Shown: piece after piece, positions 11,586 to 18,291 of the stretch
How positions within the stretch are numbered: position 1 is the stretch's first letter
Layout: the number at the start of each line of letters is the position of its first letter
From: Deltaproteobacteria bacterium
Lineage (GTDB): Bacteria > Myxococcota > UBA727 > VGSZ01
Direction: 5' to 3'
Length of the DNA: 64,000 nt
Assembly: GCA_016874845.1 (NCBI GenBank)
Contig: VGSZ01000002.1
Span: 7,038 to 71,037, forward strand
Notes under the pieces: model-generated
Seen by the model: only the letters and a program-made list of their open reading frames with translations
What the model was told of the DNA's origin: nothing
The model's database searches: none
Translations under genes and position numbers: made by a program

Positions 11586-11688
11586 ATGAGCAGCGTCTCC
11601 GACTTCAACGCGCACAAGAGCTCGGTCCTGCACGAGCTCGAGCCGTTCCGCGAAGGCGTGGACGCGGAGCGCCTTGCCCCCATGCCGG
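11586..11688 (+). pseudogene. 5' part of a hypothetical gene interrupted by the 5.5-kb tail-module fragment
   Basis: ORF frame 11526 reads MSSVSDFNAHKSSVLHELEPFREGVDAERLAPMP and stops being protein-like at the GCCGG junction (11684-11688). It continues in frame at 17202 (see findings). Confidence 0.4.
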
Positions 11689-12450
11689 CCGGCGGGTCGA
11701 GGATCGCGAAGACGAGCCCCTCTCGAACGCTCTCGCAGTAGGTGACCATCGCGTTGTGAACAGCGGCGGTGGCGCGCCCCGGGACGAGCAGCAAGCTCAG
11801 GTCCTGAACGGCGTCGAGCGCACGAATGCCGGTCTTGGCGATCTCGGAGCCGATGAAGTCGCCGTCCTGCAGTCCGACCAGCCCATCGTTGCCGCCGGTG
11901 AGTCCGACGGTTTGCACGTTGAGTCCGGGCGATCCCGGGACGGCCTGGTCGACCACGCGTACGAGGGCCGAGCCACCGCGCGAGGCGTTGACGATGGTCT
12001 CGACGAAGCGCGCGCTGGTCCGTGACATCGACAGGTCGGCGAAGACCTCGCGGTAGGCACCGTCCTCGATGACCGCGAGGTCGAAGGTCCCCGGATCGCC
12101 GCTGGTCGGCGCGCGGACCTCGACCTCCAGCCGGTTCGCGTAGCTGCCCGGGTCCTTGCCCTCGACGCGGAGCGCGTTGACGACGCCGCCCGAGCTGCCC
12201 GTGTGCACGACGTTGTCGAGGCCGAGGCGCTCGTCGAGCGATGACGCGGCGAGCACCTGGAGGCTCGCGCCTGCGCCCGTTGCGACGGTGCGAAGCCGCA
12301 GAGCGCCATCCACGACGGCGGCGACGACGCCGGGCGCCGCGGACATCACGATGCTCGCGATCTCGGCGGCGGTGACCTCCGCGGCGAGGCCGACGTTGCC
12401 CGAGCCAAGCGCGGTGGACGTCGGGAATGCGAGCACGGTGTTGGCGTCGC
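11684..12450 (-). pseudogene. Contractile tail sheath protein, internal/N-proximal fragment
   Basis: ..VEGKDPGSYANRLEVEV..FDLAVIEDGAYREVFADLSM..FIGSEIAKTGIRALDAVQDLSLLLVPG..VTYCESVREGLVFAILDPPAG is typical of phage/eCIS sheath proteins. The first ~100 aa are missing (replaced by the IS630 remnant). The frame degenerates after DPPAG. Confidence 0.7.
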
Positions 12451-13010
12451 CGCCTCCAGGGCCTCCAGGAAGTCGCTGAACTCCACCTGCCGCTTCCGGT
12501 CGTAGCACCGCCCCGACACCGCCCCGGTGCGCGTGTTGAAGGCCGCGAGTAGCTTGAGCGCTCCGACCCGGCGCTACTCGTGCTCACCGCGCATCGGTCG
12601 GCCCGGCGCCGCGGGCGTGGTCGGTGAGACCCGCGGGTGCGGCCAGAGTGAGGTCTTATCGTCGACGCACAGGACCGCTTCGTGGGGCTGGAGGGGGCGC
12701 GTGGAGAGACCGCAGATCGTCTCGACCTGCGCAAGGAAGGCCTTGTCGCGCTCCACCTTGGGGCTCATCCACCGGCGCACCCGCCAGGGCTTAAGCTCGT
12801 GGTGCACGAGCATGCGCCGAACCGTCTTCGCGCGGATGGCGTGCGAATCAACTCACGCGCGAGCTCCAGACAGTCCCAGGTGGAGCGCGAGCGACCGCGC
12901 AGCTCAGGTTGCTCGCGCGCGATCTTGACGATCGCGAGCGCGACCCCCGGGGGAAAAGCGGCGGTCGGCGCAAGGCGCGCGTCCCCGCGTCCAACCATTA
13001 CGTTCGAGAG
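12451..13010 (-). mobile_element. IS630-family transposase remnant (pseudogene)
   Basis: HTH part ..FPPGVALAIVKIAREQPELRGRSRSTWDCLELAREL, then in another frame ..RRMLVHHELKPWRVRRW..DKAFLAQVETICGL.., ..VLCVDDKTSL.., GEHE*RRVGALKLLAAFNTRTGAVSG. There is an in-frame TAG at 12574-12576 and at least one frameshift near 12800. Both ends are truncated. Confidence 0.65.
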
Positions 13011-13016
13011 GATTCC

Positions 13017-13418
13017 ATGAGCAACCGCAAGACCGCCGCTGGCAAGATTCAGGTGAAGACCTGAGAGTCGCTCCCCTTTGACACGAGCGTGGGCCCCTCG
13101 CTCAACGAGCTCCGCGTGACTGAGGACTTCGTTGGTGACCTCGCCGGCGAGGGGGCGGCGCGCATGCTCCAGACCCTCCGCGCCGACGGGTCGGCGTACT
13201 TCGTCGCCGTCGAGCGGGTCACCGCGACCCTCGACGGACGCGCGGGCAGCTTCGTGCTGCAGGACGAGGGGAGCCTCGTGGGCAACCGCGTGAAGGGCAC
13301 CTGGTTCGTGGTGCCGGGCTCTGCCACGGGCGACCTCGCGGGGCTCCGCGGCGAGGGCGGCTTCGAGGCCGAGCTTGGACAAAACGCGGACTACACTCTG
13401 TCCTACTGGTTCGAGTGA
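13017..13418 (+). pseudogene. DUF3224-family protein with in-frame TGA at codon 16
   Basis: MSNRKTAAGKIQVKT*ESLPFDTSVGPSLNELRVTEDFVGDLAGEG..GSFVLQDEG..VVPGSATGDLAGLRGEGGF..YTLSYWFE. The TGA at 13062-13064 sits where I expect a Trp in this family. Confidence 0.6.
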
Positions 13419-15797: not shown

Positions 15798-15964
15798 GGC
15801 GGTCCTCCGAGGAAACGGTCATCGGAGGACAGGCGCGCCGCCTCCACCGGAGTAGAGCCGGGCGGCGACGGGGTTGGGACGCGAGAGCGTGCGTCGCGAG
15901 CTTTACTGAACCCACCGACTTGCACGCCGAGTAAAGCGGCGTGGTTTCGTAAAGTCGGCGGGGT

Positions 15965-16426
15965 TTACTGCACCAGCTCGAAGAAGTCGTAGGTCAGCGT
16001 GACCGACTCGATGACGTTCTCGTCGCTCTCGTTGTCCCAGTCGCCGGCCACGAACTTCACCGGCCAGGCCCGCGAGAGCGTCCAGCGACGCAGCGCCGTG
16101 CCGTCCCGGTCCTGCTGCACGATGTCGAGGTTGCGCTTGTAGTTGACGTCAGCGAGGCCGAGGCCGCTCGAGGTGATCGCGACGTCCTGAAACCAGTCGA
16201 ACAGGTCGCGGTCCTGCGTCGCGCCGCGCTCGAGCGTGACGTCGGCGAAGGTGAGCCGTCCCGGGCTCTTGTTCGGGATGAGCGAGCCGCCCTCGAAGTA
16301 CTGGACGTTCGCCACCTCGACGGCGAGCTCGGAGCACTTCTGAAAGCCGGCGTCGCCGACGTCGTCGATCTCGACGACGAACTTGAACTTCTTGTGGAAG
16401 CTGCGTGGGGTTCCGATGACGGGCAT
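15965..16426 (-). CDS. Contractile tail tube protein (gp19/Afp1-like 'phage tail protein')
   Basis: [80 protein letters not shown].. is a typical tube-family N-terminus. A GGAGGAG RBS precedes the ATG. Confidence 0.85.
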
Positions 16427-17201
16427 GGGTCTCCTCCTCGGGCGCCCGCGGCAGCCAGCTCGGCCTCGAGGGCCCGCGTGTCCTGGCTGATGCGGCGGAT
16501 GATGAACTCGGCCGGCTTGTTCGTGGCGAGGCCGATCCGCGCGATGAGCTTGCCCGCGAAGATGACGGTGGGCGTGTTGAGCGTGTCCGAGACGTCGATG
16601 AAGAACGCCTTGTCAGGCTCGCGGCTGCGGAAGGCGCCGTTGTTCATCTGCGTCCGCAGGAACGCCGTGATGGTCCGGAGCACCTGGGCGCGCAGCCCCT
16701 CGGTGTTGTTCTTGTGCCGAGCGAACTGCAGGCCCTGCTTGAGCGAGCGCTCGATGAAGCTCACGCCGCGTCGCTCGGCGACGTACGGAAAGTTGCCGTC
16801 GCCCTTGAGCGTGCGCGAGCCGTCGATGTAGCGCGGCAGCCCAGGGCCCGTCGTCAGCGAGTTGATGCGCTTCGGGTACACGAGGTCCCGCTTGCGCTCC
16901 TCGAGGACCTCGTCGGTCTCGAAGCCGAACACGCCGAACAGTCGGCCCGTGTCGACGCCGGCCGGCGGGTCGTAGACGCCGCCGGGACGGGCGCTGTCGG
17001 TCCGAGAGTAGACGCCCGCGAGGATGCCCGACGGCGCTACGACGATCTGGTCGTTCGACCCGAACACGCTGCGAGCCGGGTTGAGCACCTTCACGCGCGG
17101 CCAGTAGATGGCGGCGTGCTCGCTCACGTTGGAGAGGCCCGCGGTGTTGACGACGTAGTCGATGATTCCGCAGGCCGCGGCGTCGGTGCGCGTCGCGCCG
17201 G
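16427..17201 (-). pseudogene. Contractile tail sheath protein, C-terminal half
   Basis: ..[110 protein letters not shown]. It begins exactly at the GCCGG junction (17197-17201). It has no stop before the tube gene, so the frame runs on to 16057. Confidence 0.75.
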
Positions 17202-18291
17202 ACCTGCGCTCGACGCTGTCACGGATGCCGAATTCGGGGCGCTTCGCGCTGCGCTTCCTGTGGACCGGGAACCCGTCGAACCCCTTCGAGCACCCGCGCG
17301 GGTTGCGCCGCATCTTCGAGGCCGAAGAAGAAGAGGTCGCGGCTGAGCTCGTCGATCGGGTGTTGCCCGCGCTCGCCGAGGTCGAGGGCATCGGGGCCGT
17401 GGCGCGGTATCAAGACCAGATCGCGGCGGTCAAGACCGACGTGTTCGTCTTCGTCGCCGTGTCATCGACGCTCGCTGCCGCGCGGGCGACGCTCGCCACG
17501 ACGATGTGCGCGACGCACCCGGGGTGCACGACTCACGCAGTGACGACGACGGTGCGGGGCGAGGACTGGTCGGGGATCGAGGTGCGTCGCCCCGGCAAGC
17601 CACCGGTGTCAGCGTTCGTGACGGTCGAGGGGCGCGCGCTCTGGGTGTTCCGCAACCTGCCGAGCGAGGGGTGCGTGGCGCGCGAGCTGCTCGAGCAGGG
17701 CCTCGGCGAGCACAAGCTCTTCGCCTACGCGGAGCTGCGCCGCGCCGTGGAGGCCCTGCCGGCGCGCTTCACCGCTGAGGGCGAGGAGCTGGCCAGCGTC
17801 TCGCTGGTGCAGGTCGGGAGCGCGTACATCAAGGCAAAGTACGGCGCCGAGTGGGCGCAGCTCATGCGGGGCCATTGGGCGGCGTCGTTCGCGTTCCGCG
17901 ACCCGCGGGGCGCCTGGTCCATCGACATGTTCGACTTCATGAACGACGACATCGCGCTGCGCGCCCACCATGCGCGGTACGGCAGCTCATGCAGTCGTTC
18001 CACGCCAGCGACGTCAACCGCTTCATGCGTCGGCTGCGGATGGACGCGGTCTGCAAGACGAAGGTGCACGAGACCGAGGCCTGCTGCATCGATCTGTTCC
18101 AGATTGCGCGGCTCAAGGAACTCAACTTCGTCCGCGACGGATTTCTGTATGCGCTCGACTCGTACGTTCTCGACCACCGACCGGTGTCGCTGATGGATGC
18201 CCGGCGCGCGCGTGCGGAGGCGCTCCCGGCGTTCTCCGCCGGCCGGCGGCGGTCGGTGGTGATCGAGAATGGACCCGTCTTCCTCGACTGA
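17198..18291 (+). pseudogene. 3' part of the interrupted hypothetical gene (additionally frameshifted near 17980)
   Basis: Frame 17162 reads ..P|[63 protein letters not shown]...IDMFDFMNDDIALRAHHARYG. The sequence then continues in frame 17851: QLMQSFHASDVNRFMRRL..LFQIARLKELNFVRDGFLYALDSYVLDHRPVSL..ENGPVFLD*. Confidence 0.4.

Follow-up and report, generated by a model that had tools for sequence, protein, structure and literature searches.

In Campbell-type integration, one exchange between attP and attB brings a circular genome into the chromosome, and the integrated genes form a circular permutation of the free map. A comparable arrangement has been described in wine yeast, where circular permutation together with 2-3 nt of microhomology at the junctions of the Zygosaccharomyces bailii 'region B' pointed to a circular intermediate (Galeote et al. 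2011, PMC3053389). In Streptomyces ambofaciens, chromosomal breaks repaired by end joining can take up endogenous sequence, from 30 bp to 18.8 kb in length, at scars with little microhomology or none (Hoff et al. 2018, PMC5869714). Here, we describe a 5,498-bp insert with genes of a contractile phage tail, located in a 64-kb stretch (73% GC; hereafter the window) of contig VGSZ01000002.1 from a Deltaproteobacteria bacterium of the Myxococcota. The insert interrupts a rare gene of a SPOR-domain family, and its tail sheath gene is split into two pieces of swapped order. We consider it very probable, from the arrangement of the sequence, that the core of this structure arose by one non-homologous joining of a circular DNA molecule with the chromosome inside the SPOR-family gene.

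The insert shares its topology with a Campbell-type product, but lacks an integrase and an att core, does not sit at a tRNA or intergenic target, and has its break inside an essential phage structural gene. Such a product could never have been a viable prophage. Similar to region B of Z. bailii, the integration of which was attributed to end joining, the segments are circularly permuted relative to each other or to their source, and junction repeats are lacking. In contrast, region B resides in a eukaryote, occurs in several copies and loci, and contains a functional autonomously replicating sequence, whereas the insert is a single bacterial copy with 1 nt shared at its joints and no sign that its circle replicated. 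The captures in S. ambofaciens are homology-independent, as is the insert, and a process of this kind could explain the integration step, a 1.8-kb filler in the interior of the insert, or both. They differ in that the breaks were induced experimentally, the captured fragments were linear, and no permutation was reported. Cryptic prophages, tailocins and extracellular contractile injection systems (eCIS) make use of the same gene families (sheath, gp19-type tube, hub-like protein and tape measure), but the insert holds four tail genes, two of which are broken, without any baseplate, spike or fibre gene.

The split sheath gene carries the main evidence. It is one myophage sheath gene in two minus-strand pieces, with codons 232-491 at 12454-11673 and codons 491-735 at 17171-16441. 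The reconstructed sheath, used as a query, has more than 1,000 homologues; its top match, at 93% amino acid identity, is the intact 735-aa sheath protein P0001 of a related locus (L001), which served as the reference for base-level comparison by blastn and tblastn. In the blastn alignments, window positions 11673-12454 correspond to positions 11475-10694 of L001 (92.5% identity), and positions 15885-17171 correspond to 12759-11475 (96% identity). Base 11475 of L001 is thereby the common end of both pieces, which abut exactly, with neither gap nor overlap relative to the intact gene. A separate check by tblastn places sheath residues 232-491 at 93.5% and residues 491-735 at 96.3% identity. The initial annotation of this DNA had proposed that the sheath halves lie swapped on the same strand as a circular permutation, and had asked whether they abut or derive from overlapping paralogues; the comparison with L001 confirms the permutation and shows abutting pieces of one gene. 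An exact look-up of the 341-aa open reading frame (ORF) covering the N-proximal sheath piece returned no record.

The base-level comparison moves the breakpoints. They had been placed at two GCCGG pentamers, read as a 5-bp microhomology; the alignments instead indicate junctions at 11672/11673 (J1, the left joint) and 17171/17172 (J4, the right joint), 15 and 30 nt away from the pentamers, with an overlap of 1 nt. The shared base is a single C/G, represented by bases 11673 and 17171. On the left, the N-proximal piece continues to match the intact gene for 15 nt past GCCGG (14 of 15 nt), ending in GCCGGCATGGGGGCAAG, which reads PAGMGA. On the right, the match of the C-terminal piece starts only at GCGGAATCATC, and the 30 nt of 17172-17201 (translated 'ATRTDAAAC') are without counterpart in the sheath and form part of the flank gene. 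Joining the pieces at these positions yields DPPAGMGASGIIDY, the same as in the intact sheath, and the restored stretch ILDPPAGMGASGIIDYV matches P0001 exactly. More specifically, the codons at the join are GCA AGC GGA (MGA-S-GII), identical in P0001, whose intact sequence across this region is DPPAGMGASGIIDYV; the break lies between the second and third base of codon 491.

The spacing of conserved sheath motifs separates the two possible joins. The distance from DPP to YWP could be measured in the 109 of 120 listed sheath homologues in which both motifs were found, and amounts to 33 aa in all but one of them, where it is 32 aa. It is 33 aa at the revised join and 38 aa at the GCCGG join, previously read as ILDPPAGATR. 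The latter forces a gap of five residues in the alignment with P0001, and the extra residues occur in none of the 109 measurable homologues. The presence of GCCGG near both joints is a coincidence, because the pentamer occurs 354 times in a window of this GC content. The length of the unit, given earlier as 5,513 bp, is 5,498 bp (the 5,499 nt of 11673-17171 include the shared base at both ends), and the sequence implied for the joint of the circle is GATTCCGCTTGCCCCC.

On the donor side, the unit is permuted over its full length, exact to the base and with no base lost, as expected from single-exchange integration. This exactness bears on two explanations that do without the integration of a circle. 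In the first, a broken host replication fork would have copied from sheath codon 491 to tape-measure codon 233, then from a truncated LysR gene to a truncated IS630 transposase gene, and then sheath codons 232-491, before returning to the host. Such template switching would account for several junctions of low or no homology within a short region and for fragments from at least three sources, but the fork would have had to leave the sheath on the very base at which it entered. In a gene of 2.2 kb, this would happen by chance about once in 2,200 cases, except with a circular template, which would lead back to the favoured explanation; we regard this course of events as very unlikely. In the second, an in-situ tandem duplication of the unit from sheath to IS630 would have been followed by two deletions removing the outer part-copies. 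The 'b-a' order can be derived from a-b-a-b arrays, and the joint between the IS630 fragment and sheath codon 232 (J2, 12454/12455) resembles a novel joint of the duplication type. However, both deletions would have to share the sheath base and fuse it to adjacent bases of an unrelated host gene, and the window holds no trace of duplicated sequence, which makes this route scarcely credible.

Both flanks of the insert read as collinear parts of one rare SPOR-family gene on the plus strand. The left part covers 11460-11672, with an open frame from 11460, an ATG at 11586, a last segment GVDAER and a GC content at third codon positions (GC3) of 0.86; the right part covers 17172-18291 and was assigned by tblastn and BLASTP to the proteins P0122 and P0123. 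Once the shared C is counted single, the plus-strand frames of the flanks are continuous, and the rejoined flanks imply the empty-site sequence GGACGCGGAGCGCCAGGCCGCGGCGTC. A search with the fused flank ORF returned three matches among 5.8 billion proteins, which makes the family extremely rare. One of them, P0121, is a 99% identical ORF in another assembly, whose start (MIPQ) falls inside the junction. The other two, P0122 (627 aa) and P0123 (566 aa), are intact homologues with 44-45% identity to the fused ORF, and each aligns to it in a single high-scoring segment pair over 99% of the ORF length, including the left flank.

The left-flank peptide was also aligned alone. Its best local match in P0122 lies at residues 190-211 with a score of 55 (shuffle mean 29.6, s.d. 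4.4), which none of 1,000 shuffles reached, and its best match in P0123 lies at residues 159-191, with 8 of 1,000 shuffles reaching the score. In both proteins, these residues are found directly upstream of those matching the right flank. By tblastn, residues 226-525 of P0122 correspond to window positions 17198-17980 (frame 2) and residues 527-627 to 17983-18288 (frame 1). The assignment of the two flanks to one gene, rather than to unrelated genes, is thus borne out by their collinearity with P0122 and P0123, and an uninterrupted target is found at the protein level only, at the identity given above.

The initial annotation regarded the fused flanks as a plausible hypothetical gene. A real gene family, with a SPOR domain, stands behind it, but the copy in the window is a pseudogene with at least three lesions. 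It is without the N-terminal ~190 residues, which in both homologues comprise a membrane segment and the SPOR domain (residues 117-193 of P0122). Only 240 nt lie between the stop codon of a xanthine-dehydrogenase-type gene (xdh, 6869-11218) and the SPOR-family open frame, and no remnant of the SPOR domain was detected by Pfam in any frame of 11219-11672; the gene either has lost its 5' part or is short by nature. Furthermore, a 1-nt deletion near 17981 shifts its frame (RAHHARYG/QLMQSFHAS) and is also present in an independent contig, L003, which encodes P0121. As for the genomic surroundings of the family, a D5_N primase gene and two HTH_17 genes lie beside the homologue P0122 (locus L004), and an AAA_15/AAA_21 ATPase gene lies beside P0123 (locus L005); the neighbours of both are mobile-element or defence-type genes.

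Phage-derived DNA that interrupts a gene, and whose removal restores the frame of a family with a SPOR domain, is reminiscent of programmed intervening elements such as skin of Bacillus, the excision of which restores the host gene. We give this explanation almost no weight here: the host gene would remain frameshifted near 17981 and without its N-terminal part after excision, the end repeats amount to at most 1-3 nt, and no recombinase gene or active transposase gene is located within or beside the insert.

The favoured explanation can be laid out as a short series of steps. A circular DNA molecule with a myophage sheath gene would have been joined once, without homology, to the chromosome in the SPOR-family gene. 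The circle would have opened in sheath codon 491, and the chromosome in the linker after GVDAER. DNA on the 3' side of the break (sheath codons 491-735, tube, hub-like gene and the start of the tape measure) would then come to lie at one end of the insert and DNA on the 5' side (sheath codons 232-491) at the other, with the host halves outside; the sheath order would be swapped because the circle was opened at one point. The joining may have been a conservative reciprocal exchange, such as illegitimate recombination of the topoisomerase type, or a circle cut once may have been ligated into a chromosomal double-strand break by end joining. We infer the circular intermediate itself from the resulting arrangement. 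The single joining of circle and chromosome put forward in the initial annotation is the right topology, and transposition, site-specific integration and a simple insertion or inversion do not fit.

The search for features of mobile elements was consistent with this. The joints lack extended homology; they share 1 nt or, at the most, CGC with one base added. The insert ends have neither terminal inverted repeats (best score 10, shuffle mean 9) nor a target duplication, no tRNA gene is present in the window, and no repeat family is found at the junctions. A survey of ORFs and Pfam domains over 11.2-18.6 kb of the window detected no integrase, and the ends carry no repeat that could represent an att site. 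Integrase-mediated integration was rejected for want of both integrase and att. The only transposase sequence in the insert is the IS630 piece, which is internal, contains a stop codon and a frameshift, and is not positioned at an insert end, unlike in an insertion sequence or composite transposon; movement by IS630 was likewise rejected, the fragment being internal and without ends.

The structure is well supported by other assemblies. J1, J2, the joint between the LysR fragment and the tape-measure gene (J3, 14245/14246) and J4 each recur in separately assembled contigs (L003, L008, L011 and L128-L132) from about a dozen samples and two data sources, at 99.9-100% identity. The right joint is spanned by L003 (ENA, 99.94% over 14871-18300) and L008, and the left joint by L011 (100% over 10415-11789). 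The contigs L128 (8768-15143, 100%), L129, L131 and L132 (ENA) cross both the left joint and the joint between sheath and IS630, which is also crossed by L130, and the joint between LysR and tape measure is crossed by L128, L129, L130 and L132. A circular or repeated element stitched into the chromosome during assembly would be conceivable in metagenome-like data, in which a second sheath allele gives rise to locally chimeric contigs (L006 and L008). However, separate assemblies span all four joints, and an assembler mis-join is unlikely because the joints share 1 nt and no repeat was available; overall, we judge an artefact to be extremely improbable.

The two contigs with a divergent patch deserve a separate description. 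L006 equals the window except for 85 mismatches, all of which fall within 16534-17100, and L008 has 18 mismatches at 16537-16633, many of them at the same positions. These sequences imply that the same metagenomes contain a second, related sheath allele, and the patches could represent chimeric assembly or gene conversion with another prophage. An interpretation of L006 as an older, diverged strain was dropped: its mismatches are confined to one patch, which indicates a second allele or a chimeric contig.

Several points weigh against the integration of a circle as we describe it. The contigs that support the structure match the window at about 100% identity; they validate the assembly, but neither date the event nor establish its independence. 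Neither a free circle nor an empty site nor a donor locus was found in scans of metagenomes and genome contigs: a 24-nt left-flank probe detected only the occupied site in the single metagenome scan made, and a scan of genome contigs with the flank-protein alignment returned no relative. The joints could also be read as a 3-nt CGC microhomology with one added base, a small caveat to the 1-nt reading, which we prefer because it requires no indel and preserves the frame of the host gene. The exact pre-insertion sequence is a reconstruction, given that the only intact homologues share 44-45% identity and that conservation is low in the linker that holds the junction; the target may thus have lost or gained a few bases. 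The host gene has other lesions and may already have been dead at the time of insertion, so that the continuity of its frame, with a prior of 1 in 3, is weak evidence. The in-frame fusion of the flanks noted in the initial annotation does hold, and it does so for either placement of the deletion because the two differ by 15 nt, but it inherits this weakness. Finally, the mosaic interior requires at least three further illegitimate events, whichever circle is assumed.

The insert as a whole is a mosaic containing a decayed tail module. Between xdh and a zinc-ribbon/GYF gene (18603-20156), the region is made up of many fragments, with no intact long gene. From left to right, the insert begins with the minus-strand sheath fragment of codons 232-491 (11673-12454), followed across J2 by an internal fragment of an IS630-family transposase gene on the minus strand (12455-12992, the end being approximate; NCBIfam NF033545, E = 3.3e-17, model positions 65-218 of 299). 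This fragment lacks both of its ends, is interrupted by an in-frame TAG (12574-12576) and a frameshift (near 12870-12880), and is not accompanied by inverted repeats. It is followed on the plus strand by a DUF3224 gene (13017-13418; Pfam PF11528, E = 7e-30) with an in-frame TGA at 13062-13064, where codon 16 would presumably encode Trp by our reading of the family. An apparently intact 181-aa gene of the ABM monooxygenase-like family comes next (13420-13965, plus strand; PF03992), with homologues at 73-94% identity. On the minus strand, the last ~97 codons of a LysR-type regulator gene (13952-14245; about positions 221-296 of 298 in NCBIfam LysR models) reach J3, where they are fused in frame to the tape measure.

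The remaining tail genes all lie on the minus strand. The 5' part of the tape-measure gene (14246-14829; PF10145 and PHROG tape-measure families) comprises codons 62-233 (14246-14761) and 1-22 (14764-14829), separated by a frame-breaking 113-nt deletion relative to L001 at 14760/14761. It is followed by a 257-aa T4_baseplate or baseplate-hub-like gene (15024-15797; PF12322, phrog_150), with an intact ORF and 98.8% amino acid identity to L001, and by the 153-aa gp19-type tail tube gene (15965-16426; PF06841, E = 2.5e-32, phrog_4542), also intact and 98% identical to L001. The sheath fragment of codons 491-735 (16441-17171) completes the insert. Its stop codon at 16438-16440 has changed from TGA to CGA, and the frame runs on across the tube gene as an artefactual 444-aa ORF.

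With regard to the 1.25-kb block of DUF3224, ABM and truncated LysR genes, the order with a convergent LysR is the native chromosomal arrangement in a relative, and a fusion protein of DUF3224 and ABM exists (P0126). The LysR fragment is 76% identical at the nucleotide level to an ABM-LysR locus (L014) up to 14217. The block is therefore captured chromosomal DNA rather than phage cargo, because its order is that of an ordinary chromosomal neighbourhood in a relative. The contig with the best ABM homologue, L127 (95.5% nucleotide identity), ends 50 nt before J3 and is therefore silent on a native DUF3224-ABM-LysR copy. As a separate observation within the ABM gene, three contigs from three samples (L133, positions 1-126, L134 and L135) match the window exactly up to 13479 and then switch, at 13479/13480, to a shared sequence of lower GC content beginning TGAACGACGTCAACTACATGCACCC, which is absent from the window; part of the population probably carries a mobile element, or some other structural variant, at this point.

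The mosaic interior allows two versions of the circle, which are about equally probable: a ~5.5-kb composite of a prophage remnant and the IS630-DUF3224-ABM-LysR segment, or a whole phage genome whose interior was replaced later. An already decayed tail module on the circle, as originally suggested, fits the data, but is one of two scenarios that do so equally well. In the composite version, which we hold only tentatively, a ~5.5-kb circle would have been excised without a recombinase from a junction between decaying prophage and chromosome elsewhere and reinserted at an unrelated site, and no event after integration is needed. In the other, an entire circularised phage genome would have been joined at sheath codon 491, perhaps having first been cut there, and would have been dead on arrival; its interior, starting at tape-measure codon 233 and running round to sheath codon 232, would later have been deleted and the gap patched with the 1.8-kb filler. 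In favour of this version, phage genomes circularise naturally and reach high numbers in infected cells, and the nearest intact cluster is a complete phage-like one with capsid genes, of a family common among Myxococcota genomes and IMG/VR contigs. The tail ORFs that remain are mostly intact and 96-99% identical to this relative, and bacterial end joining is documented to combine deletion with the uptake of endogenous DNA (PMC5869714). Against this stand the ordinary chromosomal nature of the DUF3224-ABM-LysR DNA, the need for a two-part chromosomal filler to land exactly at the deletion, and the absence of any other phage gene from the 64-kb window, and the number of events is about the same as for the small circle. 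This version, too, falls short of even odds in our assessment. A related possibility is that the insert records an infection that failed, with phage DNA cut in the sheath gene and then ligated into a chromosomal break.

The source of the tail genes is a capsid-encoding phage or prophage of the myophage type and not an eCIS, because the nearest intact relative encodes capsid and portal. Its cluster (L001) comprises portal, protease, HK97 capsid, sheath, tube, tape measure, CIS_tube, gpD-like, gpV-like and baseplate genes. The initial annotation had left room for a parental tail or eCIS cluster; the eCIS part fails, an eCIS origin being ruled out by the capsid and portal genes of the relative. 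The sheath family is found in at least 139 places in genomes, labelled mostly as Myxococcota and including isolates of Myxococcus and Citreicoccus, and in 32 IMG/VR contigs. Two sheath genes found at 92% identity in reference MAGs (L015 and L016) lie on contigs of 2.5-3.8 kb binned as Ilumatobacteraceae and Rubrivivax, which are unlikely hosts for a family otherwise seen in Myxococcota; these contigs are probably mis-binned.

One further feature of the phage cluster is the spacer at 15798-15964 between the tube gene and the hub-like gene, which resembles a cargo (moron) slot. At this position, L001 carries two extra genes, one of them MarR/HTH-like. Their absence from the window was considered as a sign of decay and discarded, as the distance separating the tube gene from the 257-aa gene ranges from 26 nt to 8.5 kb across 85 related loci with both genes.

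In its present form, the region is inert. The sheath is split and has lost its stop codon, the tape measure is frameshifted and truncated, DUF3224 and IS630 contain stop codons, and the host gene is frameshifted. A functional contractile injection system or tailocin is not encoded: sheath codons 1-231 are missing, the tape measure is truncated, and the window contains no baseplate or spike genes. Elsewhere in the window, at 29140-30850, 47350-48460, 53930-54140 and 56430-56550, long arrays of imperfect repeats of ~93 nt, rich in GAC/GGC codons (Asp/Gly) and by eye thrombospondin-type-3-like, occur along with tracts of (GAGGGC)n or (GCCCTC)n in several large genes.

Taken as a whole, the insert is a fossil of a known kind of event, the illegitimate, Campbell-type capture of a circle, and represents no new function or system. 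It provides an unusually clean natural record of homology-independent circle capture, exact to the base on the donor side, of a process usually known only from selection experiments. For annotation, the sheath and tube genes of the insert do not qualify as a contractile injection system or tailocin, and ORFs that span the junctions, such as the 343-aa 'MIPQAAAS' ORF and the 247-aa chimera of tape measure and LysR, are fusion artefacts. For large, GC-rich genomes like those of the Myxococcota, the locus shows one route by which 'junk' mosaics of prophage, insertion sequence and chromosomal DNA come about. If the small-circle version is true, it would be the bacterial counterpart of translocation mediated by extrachromosomal circular DNA (eccDNA), moving arbitrary DNA without the machinery of a mobile element.

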